DNA from: Escherichia phage vB_EcoM_DalCa | Strand: one strand, 5' to 3' | Sequence record: NC_054908.1 | DNA length: 64,000 nucleotides | Shown here: one piece after another, positions 43,901-53,392 of the stretch | Position numbering within the stretch: position 1 is the first letter of the stretch | Layout of the letters: every line of letters begins with the position of its first letter | Program-made: the position numbers and the translations under genes | Notes under the pieces: model-generated | What the model was told of the DNA's origin: nothing | Database searches by the model: none | Seen by the model: the letters and a program-made list of their open reading frames with translations, nothing else

Positions 43901-44221
43901 TTATAGCGTAATCCATTCTCGTACTATCTGAGTTACTACACGTTCACGGGGCTCGACTAGTTCAACAGTCGGAACTGCATAATACCAGTCAGAATGATAA
44001 GAACCTGACCGAGATTCATTTACCGCTACATGTACATTATGTTTTGGACTAAAGTAAACACACTGACGATATTGGCATTTACCATCTTGCACCCAGTCTT
44101 CTATTTCGATAGGTTTAAGATAGTCGGAAAAATCGAAATCATAGTTTTCCGAAAATGCATCATGGTCTTCAATAATTTCGCTCAGAACTGCATCAACATC
44201 TAATTTATTTTCAATAGTCAT
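43901..44221 (-). CDS. hypothetical protein
   Basis: 106 aa ORF. Confidence 0.45.
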   Translation of the reverse strand: MTIENKLDVDAVLSEIIEDHDAFSENYDFDFSDYLKPIEIEDWVQDGKCQYRQCVYFSPKHNVHVAVNESRSGSYHSDWYYAVPTVELVEPRERVVTQIVREWITL

Positions 44222-44231
44222 TTTTCACCAA

Positions 44232-44441
44232 TTAATTTCGCAATTTATTAAGTTCTTCATCATCAATCCAGGATTCTAGTCCTGATGGCAGGTCACATTC
44301 AATTTCCCAAAGAAGTTCTTCAATTTTCTGAAGACGATCTAGTTCTTCGGCTGGAATAGTAACCATTGACGGAGCTCGTGATACATTAATATCGTAAATC
44401 ATATTTACCCCAGTTTGACCATACAATCGCCGTATTTCCAC
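44232..44441 (-). CDS. hypothetical protein
   Basis: 69 aa ORF. Confidence 0.4.
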   Translation of the reverse strand: MEIRRLYGQTGVNMIYDINVSRAPSMVTIPAEELDRLQKIEELLWEIECDLPSGLESWIDDEELNKLRN

Positions 44442-44620
44442 TTAGAAATAGACTTTTCACCATTAGAATAATAAACTTCAAGTTTAGCACGATTATTTTT
44501 AATTTGAATAACCTTTGCTGTCATCAAAGTTCCATACCCATAATAAACTGCAACTTCATCACCTACATATACCGCGATTCCGCGGTAATCGTGAATATAG
44601 TCAGTTCCTTCGAGCATCAT
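44405..44620 (-). CDS. hypothetical protein
   Basis: 71 aa ORF. Confidence 0.4.
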   Translation of the reverse strand: MMLEGTDYIHDYRGIAVYVGDEVAVYYGYGTLMTAKVIQIKNNRAKLEVYYSNGEKSISKWKYGDCMVKLG

Positions 44621-44881: not shown

Positions 44882-45139
44882 TTATTCCTTAATTCCTAGT
44901 ACTTGTTTAAAAGTCTCGTCGTAATCAAGACTTTGGCCCGTTTGTTCTTTATGTTTGTATATAATATCACTTACTTCTGATAGCATATTTTTATATGAAC
45001 GAGTTAAAGCAGATTTAAGCACGCTGTATCTATCAGGAAATTTACCATGTTCATTATAATAAGCTATTGCTAATTCACGGACTGCCTTTTCAGCAGTCTC
45101 CATATATTCTTTACGCTTGGTCATTTTCTTCTCGGTCAA
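44882..45139 (-). CDS. hypothetical protein
   Basis: 85 aa ORF. Confidence 0.45.
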
Positions 45140-45407
45140 ATCGGTGTTTACAATGGCGACATTTATAACGAAGATTATTAGTCTGCCAATGAACTAATTG
45201 TACCTGTTCAGTACCGCATTCAGGACAATTAGGAACGTTTTTAGAAGCCCTTTCGCGACGCTTAACCATAGCCATAATGGCATCCCATGCTGGAGGTTTA
45301 AAATCTAAATCGTCAGTAACTAGCAGTCCTTTATCAAACCCAGCGCATGGAGTCCATTCAGGAAAATCTGAAGCTTCGGCAATATCTTCTAATAAACGCT
45401 TTTTCAT
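45111..45407 (-). CDS. zinc-ribbon protein
   Basis: 98 aa; CPECG...CRHCKHRF four-Cys ribbon. Confidence 0.5.
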
Positions 45408-46330
45408 TTCAGTACCTCAATAGCATCACGTAAACCATTTGCTTTGGCGGTTAAAGCCTTAAGAACTTTAGTATGCTCTTCAATCTGTTTTTCAACTTCA
45501 ATCAAACGAGCACTGAGATATTCGCGTTCTTCTTTCATAGTATCATTCCCACGATTGGGCTTTGGTGTAGGTTTAAATTCACTAGGGTCCTTTAATTTAA
45601 TAACAAATTTAGTTTCAAACAGTGAAAGACCATAATTCGTATTATCATCAAAGGATTTGACTACATCCATATCAGATAATAACGTACGAAGATTATAAGT
45701 CAAAGAACGAATCGTTTTATTATGTTTATTAGCTTCACACGGTTTCATATATGGAAGATTTTTATATATCTCATTCGGAGCGCAAACGATAATTGACAAT
45801 TCAAATTGTCCATTCTGGGACGATGGAATGAATTTAGCCGTAACCCAGTCTTTTACATTCACATTAATAGTACGGTTATCACCATGACAAAACAGTCTAC
45901 GAGAATGCTTAAAAAGCATATTCACGTTATTATTGAATTCGTGTGAAAATTCACTAGCAAATTTTTCTTTACTATTTTTAGAAAACCATTCTTCTAAATA
46001 AGTTCTTTTCACGTCATTAATAATATTAAATGTAACAACATTAGCATTTGATACATTAGTCTCAATGTAGCTTGGATACATAAATTTTTTAACATTATTA
46101 ACAGCTATCACAGAAGATAGTAATCGGGAACGTTTAAACCATTCAAGCAAATTGCCTAACGAATGAGAATACGCATTTTGTGTATCTTTACAAATATGGT
46201 TTTCCCATCCAATATAGTCTAAAAAATCACGAAGAATATTATTGATTACTGCTCTGTGTCCTATCTGATAATTACGATGTTTAGTAATAAGACTGTCAAA
46301 ATAATCAATATAATGTTTACGAGTTTTCAT
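45404..46330 (-). CDS. hypothetical protein with C-terminal coiled coil (array member 1)
   Basis: 308 aa; Pro/Lys-rich linker then about 50 aa heptad-like C-terminus. Confidence 0.5.
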   Translation of the reverse strand: MKTRKHYIDYFDSLITKHRNYQIGHRAVINNILRDFLDYIGWENHICKDTQNAYSHSLGNLLEWFKRSRLLSSVIAVNNVKKFMYPSYIETNVSNANVVTFNIINDVKRTYLEEWFSKNSKEKFASEFSHEFNNNVNMLFKHSRRLFCHGDNRTINVNVKDWVTAKFIPSSQNGQFELSIIVCAPNEIYKNLPYMKPCEANKHNKTIRSLTYNLRTLLSDMDVVKSFDDNTNYGLSLFETKFVIKLKDPSEFKPTPKPNRGNDTMKEEREYLSARLIEVEKQIEEHTKVLKALTAKANGLRDAIEVLK

Positions 46331-46382
46331 GTTCTTCTCACTTGGTTAATGATTTATACTCCGAGCCATCCTTGGCTTTAAA

Positions 46383-47381
46383 TTACTTAATTAACTGTAA
46401 AGCTTGTTCAAGACGATCCAGGCGATTAACAGATTCTTCCCAAATCCTTTTAGCCTGCTCATATTCTTTCTGCGCTTTATTAGAAATTTCTAGAACTTCT
46501 TTATAAGCTTTTTCTAATGCAATAACTTCTGGACGAATTTCTACCGGTTCAGGTGAATCATCAAGATTATCCATTAGTTCCTCAAGGGTAGTTTCTTCTT
46601 TAGGAGTATTCACAATTTCATCACATTTTTGTTGGTAAATTTCTTTATCAGTAGGTGAATAAGCACATTTCACTTCACGAAGGCTAATTATGAGTTTATA
46701 TCCTTCCCAACCGCATATATTTTTAAAAGGATATGTATGAATATTTTCTACTGTTTCCATACAAAGTAATGCGGTCTCTAACTGACGAGTTATATCACTA
46801 GCAATTGAGAAAAATTTATTAATATTCTTTTGGTTAGCGTTTGGTGTAAAAAATCCATAATTCACAAAAATAGCTACTTTATTTTCATCAAGCTCATATT
46901 CTTTTACGATAATCATATCAGAAGCCAAAGGATGAATTTGACGATAATCGCCATAACATAATTTAGAAGCTGATTTTAGAATTTGTCCTTTGAAAAGTCT
47001 GAAATTACTAATCCAACGACGAGTAAAAATATTCTCAGGGGCTTCTTTATTAAGATGATAAGAATTAACATCACCGAACCAATTATATCCTACTACATCT
47101 TTGGTTCGTTTAATTTCTTTCCCAAAATTACCAAGAATATCCCGATTAACCAAATATGAAAGAAGACGAGATCCTTTAAAGGTTTTCTTAATGGCATCTT
47201 TATTTGTACGACTAGAAATTTCATGAACTTCATGAATAAATTTGCCGGAAGAAACAATACTTGCATCAATATTATTGAGCCATTGATTGATAATAGAAAG
47301 AACACTATTTTGGCCAAACAGCGGTATAACTTTATCATCAATAACGCTATTGAATGATTTGATATATTCGTTACGAGTCAT
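46383..47381 (-). CDS. hypothetical protein with C-terminal coiled coil (array member 2)
   Basis: ORF-track ORF to 47411; start at internal Met (MTRNEY) with GAGGAG RBS avoids the promoter at 47410..47439. Confidence 0.5.
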   Translation of the reverse strand: MTRNEYIKSFNSVIDDKVIPLFGQNSVLSIINQWLNNIDASIVSSGKFIHEVHEISSRTNKDAIKKTFKGSRLLSYLVNRDILGNFGKEIKRTKDVVGYNWFGDVNSYHLNKEAPENIFTRRWISNFRLFKGQILKSASKLCYGDYRQIHPLASDMIIVKEYELDENKVAIFVNYGFFTPNANQKNINKFFSIASDITRQLETALLCMETVENIHTYPFKNICGWEGYKLIISLREVKCAYSPTDKEIYQQKCDEIVNTPKEETTLEELMDNLDDSPEPVEIRPEVIALEKAYKEVLEISNKAQKEYEQAKRIWEESVNRLDRLEQALQLIK

Positions 47382-47409
47382 ATTAATCTCCTCAGTAGAA
47401 AGTAAGAAC

Positions 47410-47439
47410 ATTATACCACATCCTTGTGGCGAAGTAAAC
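47410..47439 (-). promoter_or_regulatory. T4-type early promoter
   Basis: minus strand GTTTAC, 18 nt, TATAAT; near-identical to promoter at 2418..2447. Confidence 0.6.
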
Positions 47440-48458
47440 TAGTTCAGTGCATTTAGTGCGTTGTTCAGTTTAGAACGTTGCTTCGTGAGATTTTTGACTT
47501 TTTCTTGAGCTTTTTCTAGCATCTTTTCAGCTTCTAGCACTTCATTGGTCGCTTTAACGAGTTCATCATCTACTGCCTTGATAGACTTCTCAATCGCATC
47601 CGCGTGCCATTTTTCAACAGGTTTAAGACTCGGATTTTCAATAGGAAGAAAATTCACTTTATTGAATTTCCATGCATCTTTATTGCCTGAACTATACATC
47701 CAAAATTTAGGATCGTTTGATGAGTAATTAGATAAATTTAAGTTATCTTGCACTTCTTGCTTTTTCTCTTGCGGGACTTCATCCTTTCTCAAAAAATCGT
47801 ATTTAAATGAAACGATCATATCAAGTTCATATGTTGTTGTATGTTCCCAATTTCGCTCAAAACGAGGTAAAATCTTAGAATGAACAGCGGCAACAACATC
47901 CATATACTTAAATGCTTCTGTCAACTGCGATTTAAGGCATTCGCAAATTGAAAGAGAATTTTTTGTATTAGGTTTAAAGCTAATTCGTGCAGTTCTATTA
48001 TTTTCTTTTAATGGTCTTACTTCCATCTGAAGAGTATAACCATCAAATTTCAGGTTCTTTAAGTTAATGTCAGAACCTTTTAATCGACTAGCCGTCGACA
48101 AAATTTGCTTTAATTGTTTACGGAATAGAGCAATAAATCTCCATTCAAGACGATAATGATTTGGATTAAAAAATCCTGTTGATAAATCAACCTTACTCTG
48201 ACCAACGCCTTGAACAAATAGAGGATTTTTATAATCAATAGTTTTACAGAAATCGGTGAGCTGCTCACGAGCAGTCATTTGTGTAATATATCCCGCTTTA
48301 CTAAAATGACGTAACCATTCACTGCTATTCATATACTTAAAGTGAATATCACGATTAACTTTATCAGGGTCTAAATTATTTTCACACAAAAATGTCATAA
48401 CATCACGAGTATAGCTGGCATTACGAACCATATCTTCAATTTGAGAACGAGTTTTCAT
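47439..48458 (-). CDS. hypothetical protein with C-terminal coiled coil (array member 3)
   Basis: 339 aa; C-terminal EAEKMLEKAQEKVKNLTKQRSKLNNALNALN. Confidence 0.5.
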   Translation of the reverse strand: MKTRSQIEDMVRNASYTRDVMTFLCENNLDPDKVNRDIHFKYMNSSEWLRHFSKAGYITQMTAREQLTDFCKTIDYKNPLFVQGVGQSKVDLSTGFFNPNHYRLEWRFIALFRKQLKQILSTASRLKGSDINLKNLKFDGYTLQMEVRPLKENNRTARISFKPNTKNSLSICECLKSQLTEAFKYMDVVAAVHSKILPRFERNWEHTTTYELDMIVSFKYDFLRKDEVPQEKKQEVQDNLNLSNYSSNDPKFWMYSSGNKDAWKFNKVNFLPIENPSLKPVEKWHADAIEKSIKAVDDELVKATNEVLEAEKMLEKAQEKVKNLTKQRSKLNNALNALN

Positions 48459-48466
48459 AGTGTTCC

Positions 48467-49375
48467 TTAAGATTTAAGTAAATCAACAATTTTAATTAAC
48501 TTTTCACGCTCAGATTTAGCTTTACTACTCAATCCAGATAGTCTGAAAATTTCATCGTCATATTGTTGAATAGAAATATTCAGCTCTTCAATTTGCTTAT
48601 TAAAATAATCAATTTGTTCAGAATGTTTTTCATTACTACAAACTGGTACAGGTTTTGTAGGTAATTTAGTTGAACTGGATTCATCCGGGCGATAAATTAA
48701 AATACAACTTGAACCAATAGGACATTTTACACCAGACGAATATTCTAATGTTCCAGATTCTTTTAAAACTTCAAAAGCTAAACAGAGATGATGCCCCATA
48801 TTGACATAATCTGTAGAGTGAGCTCTGATATAATAATCATCGCCGCGAATACTAAATTTAAAGCATTTAAGGTCTTCTGTATTATTGGTCTTAAAAATCA
48901 TTTGTTTATCTAGACCTTTAGCTAATCGAGCGCCTAATGCTAATAATCGTCGTTGATTTTCCCACAAATCCGCAATCATTTGATCGAATGATAATTTCGG
49001 CATTAGTCGACCATAAAGGTCGTATCCTTTATTATAATTGCGAAGGATTTCACTCGCATTAATACGAGACAATGCTCCAATTTTATTAAGGGCTTTCATA
49101 ATGCGATTAGATAAACCCATTCCAGACCCGTTTGTTCGCTGTAAATGTTTTTCTAATCCAAATCCAATATCAACTTTAAACTTATCTAAAATTTCTGCAT
49201 GAACATCTCTGTCAATAACATTCAAATCCAAAGTTGGGTTAAATCTATGAAAAAATTTATCTGGCTCTCCACGACGAAGTACAGTCCATTCATTCAATTT
49301 TTTATTAACTAAAGATTTAATTACTGCATTGACATTATTAATTACTACTGACATATTTTCCTCACTCAATTTCAA
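48467..49375 (-). CDS. hypothetical protein with C-terminal coiled coil (array member 4)
   Basis: 302 aa; C-terminal coiled-coil-like segment. Confidence 0.5.
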   Translation of the reverse strand: MKLSEENMSVVINNVNAVIKSLVNKKLNEWTVLRRGEPDKFFHRFNPTLDLNVIDRDVHAEILDKFKVDIGFGLEKHLQRTNGSGMGLSNRIMKALNKIGALSRINASEILRNYNKGYDLYGRLMPKLSFDQMIADLWENQRRLLALGARLAKGLDKQMIFKTNNTEDLKCFKFSIRGDDYYIRAHSTDYVNMGHHLCLAFEVLKESGTLEYSSGVKCPIGSSCILIYRPDESSSTKLPTKPVPVCSNEKHSEQIDYFNKQIEELNISIQQYDDEIFRLSGLSSKAKSEREKLIKIVDLLKS

Positions 49376-49769
49376 TTTTACTAAATACGCAGAATATGAT
49401 GGAAAAAACTATATAAGCACCGCATACAGATTGAACTAATACCATTCCAAAGAACCAAACAATATTATCAAACAATGTCTGTTTTACGTCGAAAGGACGT
49501 AAACTTACAGTAATATTATCACCTTTTTCTATTGAAGAATACATCTCTGGTGAAATATATTCGCTAAATCTATAACCATCATTCAGCTCATATACAGCAA
49601 TAAACGATAAACTAGACCCCTTTCCTTGTGTTCCTGTAAAGGTATTAACTACAGTAACATCATAATCTTTATAATGCATATAATCATTAATTGCGTAATA
49701 ACCATATGCAATTACTATACATAAACAACATATCAATAAATTCAATCTTTTAATTATCAACTGTTTCAT
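49362..49769 (-). CDS. membrane protein
   Basis: 135 aa; hydrophobic helices at both termini. Confidence 0.5.
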   Translation of the reverse strand: MKQLIIKRLNLLICCLCIVIAYGYYAINDYMHYKDYDVTVVNTFTGTQGKGSSLSFIAVYELNDGYRFSEYISPEMYSSIEKGDNITVSLRPFDVKQTLFDNIVWFFGMVLVQSVCGAYIVFSIIFCVFSKIEIE

Positions 49770-49824: not shown

Positions 49825-50352
49825 TTATGCGAGTACCGTCTTTAACCGTTCTTCAAACTTCCGAAGAGTATTTTGGCGTTCAGCTCTTTGCTTTTTGTAA
49901 GTTTCAATACGCTCTGAAATGAGAGTGTATCGTTCATTTACTGATTCTTTCATAAAATCAGGAATTTCACGAGAAGCTTTAATCTCATCAAATTTATCAA
50001 TAACAGCTTGCTCTTCAGCAATTAAGTTATCATACATCAAAATATCTTTCTTGATGAACTCAATATCTTCTTGAGTTACACGAGATAACTTAGATGCTTT
50101 ATCCTTTTTGTACTGTTCGTTAGTATCACGAGACCAATGTAATGTACGATTTTTATTCGTATTTTTGTAAATTTCTACAATACCAATCTCATCAATAATA
50201 ACGATCCAATTCCAACGGGATTTGTAAATTTGTCCTCCATCAACCGCGATTTCACCACCGATTGAGACATCATTAAAGAACTTGCTTTGAGCTTCAGATT
50301 TAAATTTACCATCATTGTAGTTTACTAAGTTGAAAATATCTTTAGCATTCAT
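49825..50352 (-). CDS. hypothetical protein
   Basis: ORF-track ORF to 50412; probable start at Met MNAKDIF with GGAGG RBS; C-terminal helical region. Confidence 0.5.
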   Translation of the reverse strand: MNAKDIFNLVNYNDGKFKSEAQSKFFNDVSIGGEIAVDGGQIYKSRWNWIVIIDEIGIVEIYKNTNKNRTLHWSRDTNEQYKKDKASKLSRVTQEDIEFIKKDILMYDNLIAEEQAVIDKFDEIKASREIPDFMKESVNERYTLISERIETYKKQRAERQNTLRKFEERLKTVLA

Positions 50353-50815: not shown

Positions 50816-51796
50816 TTATTTCAGAAGAGTAACCTCAGCGATTTCTTCCCAACCGTTTTTGTCGGTCATAATAAAGTCAGCAAGATAAAGTGCAGTACGC
50901 AGTGAAACATTGCGTAAACGATTAACATTAACTTTCATCCATGATAATGCTTTATAAGTTTCTTCATCAGAAAGACCGCGTTTTTGCATCATGTCAGTTG
51001 AAAGAATAACATCTTCAACCCTGACCATAATTTCTTCATTAGTGTGAACACCCAAATCCAAATAAACTGAGCGGGAAACTAATGCTTGTAAATGTGGAGC
51101 AAGTTTAGTACCACGGTCTAATTCGCGGTCAATGTCAACGTTTGTGATAAAAACAATCGTTCCTTTAAATTCAAACTCACGCTCAATGCCTTTTTCTTCT
51201 AAGTAAGAAGATGCGGTGCTCCAGCAGACTTTACGGGTCTCTCCGGTGTCCAGAGCAGCTTTCAGAAGATTAAGAATGTCCATATCAGAGAAAACATCCA
51301 CATCATCAATCAAAAGGACAGAATTCTCTTCACGATTATTCCAAAGCTGTTCATAAAGACCGATACCAGAGATTTTACCATTAATGCTTTTATATTCGAT
51401 GTATCCAATATCATTTGCTTTATTTAAAGCTTTATCTAAAGAATACGTTTTACCAATACCTGCTGCTCCAGAGATAATTAATGAACGAATGTTTCCGTTA
51501 ATAATACCATTCGTCATCATTCCCATAACATTAAATCTTTTATTAATGCGGGTTTTCATATCTTCATACGATTCTTTAACTTCTTCAACTTTTACACCAT
51601 CATATGAAATGTCTGATTTGTAAACCCAAACACCGCGACGCTTACCGTCAATTTCAACAAAAACTTTACCATCTCCTTGTGCATCTACCGGAGCATTATC
51701 TGGGAACCATTCACCTAAGAGCTCAAAAGTTCCAGAGATTTCTTTACCGAAGTAGATACCCTTATTGATAGTTACAGTTTTCATTTTATTCTCCAA
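50816..51796 (-). CDS. P-loop ATPase (AAA-like) of unknown function
   Basis: 326 aa; Walker A GAAGIGKT and Walker B-like LLIDDVD. Confidence 0.6.
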   Translation of the reverse strand: MENKMKTVTINKGIYFGKEISGTFELLGEWFPDNAPVDAQGDGKVFVEIDGKRRGVWVYKSDISYDGVKVEEVKESYEDMKTRINKRFNVMGMMTNGIINGNIRSLIISGAAGIGKTYSLDKALNKANDIGYIEYKSINGKISGIGLYEQLWNNREENSVLLIDDVDVFSDMDILNLLKAALDTGETRKVCWSTASSYLEEKGIEREFEFKGTIVFITNVDIDRELDRGTKLAPHLQALVSRSVYLDLGVHTNEEIMVRVEDVILSTDMMQKRGLSDEETYKALSWMKVNVNRLRNVSLRTALYLADFIMTDKNGWEEIAEVTLLK

Positions 51797-52378: not shown

Positions 52379-53392
52379 TCATTTATAATAACTTCGGTGG
52401 TTTTCAAGATAGACCTTCTCAAGGAAGTCATCCCAGAAACTCATGTCTACTGTTTTAGGCATACCGTTCTTAGAAGCTTCAATAGATGCTGCTTCTACTT
52501 GATCGACCACATCTTCCAAAAACTCTTGAACCGTTTTAAATGGATGTTTACCCAACTTCACGTCGAGAATAAATGGAGCATCTTGGAGTGGATAAACCAA
52601 GTCACCAGTTTTGTAAATTTCCAATAGTTGGAGTCCACCACGGCAAGCATGACTCAGAGCTTTCCAGTCAATACCTTCATTGGCTTCGGCCTTACGAGCA
52701 CGTTCACCATATTCAGCATCTAATTTGTTCAGTGACTGCTTAAGCTCAATAAGAGAAAGCGTTGTCTGATATTTACGACCCAACACAGTGTAGAACGTTT
52801 GTGGGCCTGTTTTCTCATGATTATGGAACACCCATTCACAGAATTCGTTTTCTGGAAGACGATGCTTAATATCTTCAACTTTAGTGCGACGCTGCTTAAT
52901 AGAACCATCTTCTTGGTAATCAATCCACTGCTCAGGGATTTGATTAACTACTTTCAATACATCACGTAATGCAGCCAAACGAGAACCCTTGACACCGTAT
53001 TTAGAAGCTTGCTTGCGGACATATCCTAAATAGGATTTCATGTTAGTCGTATAAAAACGAGAACGGTTGTCTTGAATAAACTTCCACACATCAGGCAAAT
53101 CAGATTTAACCACTAGTTCAGGTGGAGTGTGAAGCATATCCAATGCTACAGTTTCACCATCTGCTGCTAATTTAAAGAAATATTTAAGACTGTATAGTTC
53201 ATGGTCAATATCATCTTTAGTGTTTTTAGATGATGTGTTGTTAGTGTTTTTACTCATGTGCTCTTTGACATTTCCGATAAGAATATCACGAGCAGGAGGA
53301 ACAAAAATTTCTTTAAAATCTACATCAGATTCTGGGGTAGAAGTTCCATAAAGATGACTACCAAAATAGCTTTTCATTACTGTTTTCATCAT
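52379..53392 (-). CDS. Pol-beta-superfamily nucleotidyltransferase of unknown function
   Basis: 337 aa; N-terminal GS-x9-DxD signature (YFGSHLYGTSTPESDVDF) and helical C-terminal domain. Confidence 0.6.
   Translation of the reverse strand: MMKTVMKSYFGSHLYGTSTPESDVDFKEIFVPPARDILIGNVKEHMSKNTNNTSSKNTKDDIDHELYSLKYFFKLAADGETVALDMLHTPPELVVKSDLPDVWKFIQDNRSRFYTTNMKSYLGYVRKQASKYGVKGSRLAALRDVLKVVNQIPEQWIDYQEDGSIKQRRTKVEDIKHRLPENEFCEWVFHNHEKTGPQTFYTVLGRKYQTTLSLIELKQSLNKLDAEYGERARKAEANEGIDWKALSHACRGGLQLLEIYKTGDLVYPLQDAPFILDVKLGKHPFKTVQEFLEDVVDQVEAASIEASKNGMPKTVDMSFWDDFLEKVYLENHRSYYK

Follow-up and report, generated by a model that had tools for sequence, protein, structure and literature searches.

The nrdC.3-nrdC.6 array of a T4-like phage: diverged paralogs with a conserved, coiled-coil-like tail and a possible role in counter-defence

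Introduction

Although no phage has been studied better than T4, three of the four long genes that it carries in tandem between nrdC.2 and nrdC.7 have no assigned function, and the fourth, nrdC.5, has a phenotype only. What these genes encode, whether they form one family and what they might do for the phage are the questions raised by positions 45404-49375 of the genomic stretch analysed here, 64,000 nucleotides of Escherichia phage vB_EcoM_DalCa (NC_054908.1), referred to below as the window. The four proteins, NrdC.3, NrdC.4, NrdC.5 and NrdC.6, are diverged paralogs, each consisting of a globular domain of about 230-240 residues (the head), a flexible, proline-containing linker of 20-60 residues and an amphipathic, heptad-repeat helix of 44-58 residues at the C-terminus (the tail). 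In the predicted heads, a helical N-terminal part precedes an alpha-beta-beta-alpha-beta-beta sandwich. Gene identity, paralogy, architecture, the heptad character of the tails, the pattern of conservation and the plasticity of the array are established in this analysis. On balance, the array is somewhat likely to represent a diversified counter-defence family, in which variable target-binding heads are combined with an oligomerising coiled-coil tail.

Identity of the four genes

The window derives from a Tequatrovirus (T4-like) genome, and 45404-49375 holds the orthologues of T4 nrdC.3, nrdC.4, nrdC.5 and nrdC.6 on the minus strand. By megablast this segment matches 501 phage records (nucleotide identity 96.6% for Yersinia phage fPS-65, 95.1% for T6 and 94.4% for T4T), and the T4T genes beneath the match are nrdC.3, nrdC.4, nrdC.5, nrdC.6 and nrdC.7. 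The encoded proteins are 93.8% (NrdC.3), 92.2% (NrdC.4) and 96.9% (NrdC.6) identical to those of T4, and the genes are syntenic between nrdC.2 and nrdC.7. The product of 47439-48458 is the orthologue of T4 NrdC.5 (DUF7235), with 92.9% identity and the same length class and genomic position, and its three array neighbours are paralogs with the same head-linker-tail architecture. Every long open reading frame (ORF) at 43-53 kb of the window lies on the minus strand. The genes are closely spaced, with 8 nucleotides between nrdC.6 and nrdC.5 and 52-57 nucleotides in the other gaps, and the nrdC.3 stop overlaps the nrdC.2 start. A scan for promoters and terminators was uninformative, as promoter-like sites were no commoner than in shuffled sequences.

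The first-pass annotation, made from the letters of the window, had placed four consecutive ORFs here. They are present as described, on the minus strand, with two starts trimmed to conserved ATGs: the nrdC.4 ORF as called (46383-47411, 342 amino acids) has its conserved start at M11, at 47381, yielding 332 amino acids, and the nrdC.6 ORF as called (48467-49375, 302 amino acids, with a TTG start) has its conserved ATG at 49354, yielding 295 amino acids.

Among domain families, the NrdC.5-like protein matches PF23882 over the complete model (positions 1-307 of 307) and above the gathering threshold (423 bits with a cut-off of 30, E 8e-127), and a Pfam search with the other three array proteins gave no match to PF23882. 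There was likewise no direct Pfam hit to PF26897 (NrdC.4 type) or PF26899 (NrdC.6 type), but all close homologues carry these precomputed labels.

Many GenBank records of related phages label the homologues of NrdC.2 to NrdC.11 "thioredoxin". For the array proteins this identity was rejected, as Pfam and NCBIfam searches revealed no thioredoxin fold or domain; the name appears to have propagated from nrdC.

A common fold behind the divergent heads

Pairwise BLASTP among the array proteins revealed only a weak match between NrdC.3 and NrdC.4 (E 0.004) and nothing for the tails. At this level, the claim that the N-terminal domains are divergent holds, but profile and structure comparisons show that the heads are homologous. 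NrdC.3 and NrdC.4 fall into a single PHROG (1435), and their families match by HHalign with a probability of 98% (E 1.7e-13). With profiles enlarged by Mosigvirus and Dhakavirus sequences taken from annotated genomes, the combined NrdC.3 and NrdC.4 profile matches that of NrdC.5 over 148 columns (probability 92.5%, E 4.8e-7), in an alignment that spans the helices 'SRLLS...L..F', '...ILK.ASRL..GD' and 'L..AL..MD.V'. The merged profile aligns with NrdC.6 collinearly from end to end, with P values of 0.002 (local) and 6.5e-4 (global) that are only suggestive.

The predicted structures extend these relationships. In the AlphaFold2 model of NrdC.4, with a mean predicted local distance difference test score (pLDDT) of 82.8, a helical N-terminal part (residues 3-84) is followed by beta strands (88-110), an alpha-beta-beta-alpha-beta-beta unit (118-234), a low-confidence linker (about 240-283) and a helix (284-331). 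The models of NrdC.4 and NrdC.5 have the same order of secondary structure: helices, alpha-beta-beta-alpha-beta-beta, linker and one long helix. A Foldseek search of BFVD with the NrdC.4 model retrieved NrdC.3 of phage fPS-65 (E 6e-8) and NrdC.6 of phage JS10 (E 2.2e-5), both with a probability of 1.0. The same search matched uncharacterised proteins of 280-370 amino acids in T4-like phages of Enterobacter, Pectobacterium, Klebsiella, Erwinia, Serratia, Yersinia, Acinetobacter and Aeromonas hosts.

The heads of NrdC.3, NrdC.4, NrdC.5 and NrdC.6 can thus be united in one superfamily, with the NrdC.6 link as the weakest, even though NrdC.3, NrdC.4 and NrdC.6 are only 10-25% identical to NrdC.5 and separate Pfam families (PF26897, PF26899) exist for this group. 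This superfamily, now split over three Pfam families, appears to be undescribed. Homology extends over the whole of the heads, and the most parsimonious history is therefore that the entire gene was duplicated, tail included, making NrdC.3 to NrdC.6 diverged full-length paralogs of one ancestral gene that already carried the tail. The suggestion that these proteins form a diversified family is thereby borne out: they have one fold and architecture in common and diverge far faster than their neighbours.

The linker and the coiled-coil tail

The heptad-like C-terminal helices that had been proposed for the four proteins are confirmed by AlphaFold2 (NrdC.4 and NrdC.5), by periodicity relative to shuffled sequences and by heptad register. 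The hydropathy periodicity of the four tails peaks at 3.4-3.5 residues (compared with 5000 shuffles; individual values are listed in Table 1). A single unbroken register runs over 6-8 heptads, with core hydrophobics at 50-77% of the a/d positions versus 7-17% of the other positions. The AlphaFold2 helices comprise 48 residues in NrdC.4 and 59 residues in NrdC.5 and have no proline or glycine breaks. The array tails thus combine a long helix, a continuous register and hydrophobic a/d positions, as a coiled coil does. Within each family, conservation by heptad position decreases from a/d to e/g to b/c/f, which is a signature expected for coiled-coil self- or mutual association and not for a conserved docking surface that faces outward.

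The linker was originally described as rich in proline and lysine. Each tail helix follows such a linker, predicted with low confidence. Proline is found in all four linkers, and the description fits NrdC.3 (KPTPKP), NrdC.6 (KLPTKPVPV) and, in part, NrdC.5, but not NrdC.4, in which the linker is rich in proline and glutamate.

Whether the tails constitute a common sequence module is a separate matter. Hidden Markov models (HMMs) of the family tails, searched against the 557 ORFs of the window, did not retrieve the tails of the other paralogs; the tails are therefore not a recognisable shared sequence domain. Profile-profile comparison of the tails alone gave P values of 6e-4 to 0.23, versus 0.03-0.8 for reversed-tail controls, and was better than the control in 5 of 6 pairs, if modestly. 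A terminal motif, L-x-x-A-[LI]-x-x-[LIVM] within the last 13 residues, occurs only in NrdC.3, NrdC.4 and NrdC.5 among 127 minus-strand ORFs, though it was defined post hoc. The idea that variable, unrelated domains carry one C-terminal module in common is consequently not supported: the heads are homologous, each paralog has a tail of its own that is kept across genera, and the tails can hardly be aligned with one another. Of the features claimed in the first-pass annotation, the heptad helices were found, but tail similarity between paralogs is weak. The annotation had also named a fifth ORF with a similar ending, nrdC.8 (49825-50352). This candidate was rejected, as it has no profile similarity to the array proteins (HHalign P of at least 0.12 against all three family profiles) and a weaker heptad periodicity (p = 0.09).

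Evolution of the array in T4-like phages

When Tequatrovirus is compared with Dhakavirus or Mosigvirus, identity amounts to 26-58% for the array proteins, versus 68-90% for NrdC, NrdC.8, NrdC.10, NrdC.11 and gp49; NrdC.8 itself evolves slowly (68-83% between genera). This divergence is unevenly distributed along the proteins. The tail is the best-conserved segment within each paralog, at 60-83% versus 20-56% for the globular core. In NrdC.3 the tail is 76-83% conserved between alleles and genera and the core 53-56%, in NrdC.6 the tail is 60% conserved between genera and the core 34-43%, and residues 316-330 of NrdC.4 are the most conserved stretch of its family. The ratios of nonsynonymous to synonymous substitution rates (dN/dS) relative to T4 are 0.17-0.36 for NrdC.3 to NrdC.5 and 0.07 for NrdC.6, and 0-0.05 for nrdC, nrdC.8 and nrdC.9. 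As far as substitution rates can tell, this pattern indicates relaxed or partly diversifying selection on genes that are still constrained and coding.

The comparison of T-even genomes that had been proposed alongside the initial description shows that the composition of the array varies by genus. Tequatrovirus has the order NrdC.6-NrdC.5-NrdC.4-NrdC.3, Dhakavirus has NrdC.6-NrdC.5-NrdC.4, and Mosigvirus has NrdC.6-NrdC.5-NrdC.3. By tblastn among 50,697 phage records, the NrdC.3 type is present in 652, the NrdC.4 type in 552, the NrdC.5 type in 580 and the NrdC.6 type in 740. When 1.84 billion representative proteins were searched with the NrdC.5 profile (HMMER), only 13 hits were returned, all phage-like fragments or distant NrdC.5-type proteins, with no cellular relatives among them.

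Viable phages carry deletions, in-frame hybrids and a duplication inside the array. In Salmonella phage Manna (L010 2715-3752, equivalent to 46383-49354 of the window), nrdC.5 and most of nrdC.4 are deleted, and an in-frame hybrid gene and NrdC.3 remain. The hybrid encodes 345 amino acids, in which residues 1 to about 270 of NrdC.6 continue, from a 'DEI' common to both proteins, into the linker and tail of NrdC.4 (residues 250-332), suggesting that the tails may be functionally interchangeable. In a second hybrid, P0056, the NrdC.5 core is fused to the C-terminal half of NrdC.3. Phage ACG-C40 (L003 5802-6213) has a deletion that leaves a 71-residue NrdC.5 fragment and a remnant of the NrdC.3 tail, with only NrdC.6 whole; phage Pinarejo (L011 3439-3652) has a frameshifted nrdC.6 remnant, and NrdC.6 of Shigella phage Sf25 (P0121) contains an internal duplication of about 83 amino acids.

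A further protein, P0230 (173 amino acids), is encoded at 120-641 of an 803-bp ENA metagenome contig (L004). Over its last 53 residues it agrees exactly with the tail of NrdC.5, and its first 120 residues have no match in the phage collection. P0230 reflects either a genuine exchange of domains or a chimeric assembly, and it was rejected as solid proof of module shuffling on account of the short contig and of an N-terminal part that matches no phage record.

More distant relatives are found in Acinetobacter phage Acj61, in which the tandem genes p120 and p121 (L009 35452-37472; 304-330 amino acids) occupy the syntenic position between nrdC and nrdC.10. Their products share the fold of the array proteins (Foldseek probability 1.0) and their layout of head, proline linker and C-terminal helix. 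Because array and architecture are conserved at this position in so distant a phage, both are, judging by the models, ancient in T4-like phages.

A possible role in counter-defence

The only functional evidence for the array comes from NrdC.5. A T4 clone lacking accessory genes fails to plate on ECOR17 or on MG1655 with the ECOR17 dsr1 gene (PMC9391042), and expression of T4 nrdC.5 alone from a plasmid restores plating on Dsr1 cells (Srikant, Guegler and Laub, eLife 2022, PMC9391042). The same paper describes nrdC.5 of T4 as early and non-essential, with a phenotype specific to defence (PMC9391042). Dsr1 is a sirtuin NADase with a TPR sensor, and a 2026 preprint reports that the major capsid protein of the phage sets off this sensor (PMC12803255). 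As NrdC.5 blocks Dsr1 in published work, the other three paralogs are candidate immune blockers. A literature search revealed no description of roles for NrdC.3, NrdC.4 and NrdC.6, of the paralogy or of the tail.

We infer direct binding and tail-driven oligomerisation for these proteins, and an anti-defence role for NrdC.3, NrdC.4 and NrdC.6, along the following lines. The fast-evolving globular heads would bind host immune proteins, the target of NrdC.5 being Dsr1, probably via its sensor. The conserved tail would form a coiled coil, rendering the inhibitor dimeric or of higher order, and such an oligomer could bind multivalently and with high avidity ahead of the late phage proteins. NrdC.3, NrdC.4 and NrdC.6 would in the same manner neutralise other defence proteins. 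In favour of this reading are the fast divergence of the array, read as the mark of an arms race, its dispensability and plasticity in natural phages, and the presence of the inhibitors PinA and Gp49.2 nearby.

Several observations weigh against this reading. The published phenotype concerns NrdC.5 alone and comes from one complementation experiment; oligomerisation of the tails and binding to Dsr1 are putative. Sequence searches of PDB, NCBIfam and PADLOC returned nothing significant and thus no independent functional support. The best PADLOC defence-model match, to BrxC (E 0.0044), fell short of significance and covers the coiled-coil region of NrdC.4 only. Pfam and NCBIfam hold no enzyme or known domain for these proteins beyond the DUF families, and a Foldseek search against PDB yielded no significant match. 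The AlphaFold2 model of NrdC.5, built from a shallow alignment, is poor (pLDDT 55) and unfit for fold searches, and NrdC.6 is tied to the others mainly via predicted-structure similarity, as the sequence profiles alone stay below significance. Finally, dN/dS is below 1 in all four genes, and positive selection is thus not demonstrated.

Alternatively, the linker and helix might be a mobile module, grafted onto unrelated N-terminal domains, that docks all of them to one common partner of host or phage origin. The tail is indeed the most conserved part of each protein, and it has been exchanged in frame in nature, as in Manna (NrdC.6 head, NrdC.4 tail) and P0056 (NrdC.5 core, NrdC.3 C-terminal half); in P0230 an unrelated N-terminal part precedes an exact copy of the NrdC.5 tail, and NrdC.3, NrdC.4 and NrdC.5 have the terminal L-x-x-A-L/I-x-x-L/I motif in common. 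A docking module is nevertheless unlikely, given that the heads are homologous, that the tail HMM of one paralog misses the others and tail profiles barely exceed reversed-sequence controls, and that the tails are paralog-specific and conserved as such across genera. The b/c/f positions, which would face outward to such a partner, are the least conserved, and the short contig of P0230 may be chimeric. A similarly small likelihood is assigned to the idea that the four proteins join via their tails in one hetero-oligomeric coiled-coil complex that displays a set of different heads together. As neighbours of one orientation with short gaps, the genes are probably co-expressed, the tails are alike in length and heptad character, and conservation at e/g comes close to that at a/d, as specific pairing would allow. 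However, phages with different combinations of one, two or three members are viable (Mosigvirus, Dhakavirus, ACG-C40, Manna), and nrdC.5 alone on a plasmid restored the anti-Dsr1 phenotype (PMC9391042).

It might also be asked whether the array has anything to do with defence, or serves phage physiology (nucleotide metabolism, redox) or, given a putative tail-terminator-like subdomain, the virion or its assembly. The location of the array among nrd genes and the thioredoxin labels in many GenBank records would be consistent with such a role, but Pfam and NCBIfam offer no match to thioredoxin or any other enzyme family, and PDB no significant match by Foldseek. The genes are often deleted or fused in viable phages and evolve far faster than the adjacent metabolic genes, and T4 nrdC.5 is early, non-essential and defence-specific in its phenotype. 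A physiological or structural role is therefore improbable, more so than either of the two preceding alternatives, and a diversified counter-defence family remains the preferred reading.

Comparison with known systems

A functional analogue of NrdC.5 is DSAD1, a phage protein which, according to the abstracts of PMC10981675 and PMC11087589, represses a defence based on a SIR2-domain NADase that is itself switched on by a structural protein of the phage. DSAD1 differs in its target, which is DSR2 and not Dsr1, and in its origin from Bacillus SPbeta-like phages, and the two are likened by function alone. A C-terminal coiled coil is not among the features of DSAD1 described in these abstracts (PMC10981675, PMC11087589).

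PinA, an inhibitor of Lon, and Gp49.2 are encoded in the same early variable neighbourhood, from gene 49 to nrdC, and likewise neutralise host proteins, T6 Gp49.2 inhibiting the OLD defence nuclease (PMC13096335). They differ from the array proteins in being small and single-domain, and no paralogy links them with one another or with NrdC.3-NrdC.6.

The heads further appear to resemble tail-terminator and tail-completion proteins (lambda gpU, T5 p142, SPP1 gp17-like and the gene transfer agent neck protein), with 3-15% identity and no sequence-level signal, so that any resemblance is confined to the modelled fold. The NrdC proteins have in addition a helical N-terminal domain, a linker and a coiled-coil tail, are dispensable and are encoded in an early accessory region. 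Nor is the gene context that of gpU-like proteins: the array products are multi-domain proteins of 295-339 amino acids from the early nrdC region, whereas gpU-like proteins are single domains of about 120-200 amino acids from a late module. It is conceivable, though we consider it a long shot, that a neck or tail-terminator-like structural fold of phages is the origin of the heads, or is mimicked by them. The early coiled-coil oligomers would then be non-activating decoys that pre-occupy the solenoid/TPR pattern-recognition sensors of host immune proteins (Dsr1, or Avs-type sensors that envelop phage structural proteins), with one sensor per paralog.

Feature coordinates and neighbouring genes

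Table 1. The nrdC.3-nrdC.6 array, its C-terminal helices and the two adjoining genes (positions in the window)
Feature	Position	Strand	Description
nrdC.3 orthologue	45404..46330	-	308 aa; globular domain, Pro/Lys linker, coiled-coil tail; phrog_1435, E 5e-99
NrdC.3 C-terminal heptad helix	45407..45538	-	about aa 265-308; periodicity p = 0.013; a/d occupancy 0.77
nrdC.4 orthologue	46383..47381	-	332 aa from conserved ATG (M11)
NrdC.4 C-terminal heptad helix	46386..46532	-	aa 284-332; predicted helix 284-331 (pLDDT ~76-83); periodicity p = 0.0004
nrdC.5 orthologue	47439..48458	-	339 aa; Pfam DUF7235 (PF23882); orthologue of the published T4 anti-Dsr1 gene
NrdC.5 C-terminal heptad helix	47442..47621	-	aa 280-339; predicted helix 280-338; p < 0.0002; eight heptads, one register
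nrdC.6 orthologue	48467..49354	-	295 aa from conserved ATG at 49354; most distant of the four paralogs
NrdC.6 C-terminal heptad helix	48470..48634	-	aa 241-295; periodicity p = 0.0024
nrdC.7 orthologue	49362..49769	-	small predicted membrane protein adjoining the array; phrog_2547; not a family member
nrdC.8 orthologue	49825..50352	-	175 aa; helical C-terminus; not a family member

The product of nrdC.7 is annotated as a predicted membrane protein in T4T, and the gene is absent from the Mosigvirus and Dhakavirus arrays. On the other side of the array, nrdC.2 (45111-45407) is strongly diverged from T4 (dN 0.23, dS 0.55, 46 nonsynonymous differences), flanked by nrdC.1 and nrdC.3 with 94-100% identity, which looks like an allelic replacement, judging by the sequence. 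Over the 3' half of nrdC.3 (45404 to about 45890), nucleotide similarity is lost in most Tequatroviruses.

Further along, a 106-residue ORF (43901-44221) matches T4 gp49.2 in position and length, its putative orthology resting on these two properties. At 44232-44620, two small overlapping ORFs (69 and 71 amino acids) take the place of the single T4 gene 49.3, and the first of the pair is annotated "antitoxin" in related phages (phrog_3402). Beyond nrdC.8, the orthologues of nrdC.10 (50816-51796) and nrdC.11 (52379-53392) differ from the array in being conserved at about 80% from genus to genus. NrdC.10 has sub-threshold matches to AAA/STAND-like P-loop NTPases, and the annotation of NrdC.11 in related phages is nucleotidyltransferase. 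A strong terminator-like hairpin (52377-52358) lies directly downstream of nrdC.11.

Significance

The genes of the array are long-annotated T4 ORFs, one of them with a published anti-defence phenotype, and in this respect they are not categorically new. What appears to be undescribed is that a conserved coiled-coil tail is carried on fast-evolving heads, that this arrangement is ancient in T4-like phages and that the paralogs recombine. In T4-like phages of hosts ranging from enterobacteria to Acinetobacter, the family is found at one and the same locus, and its recognition as one family opens three uncharacterised genes of T4 to direct tests as immune inhibitors. If it is true that each head blocks a different immune sensor, the array would be a case of anti-defence diversification by tandem gene duplication, and new inhibitors of bacterial immunity of the sirtuin/TPR type could be drawn from it.

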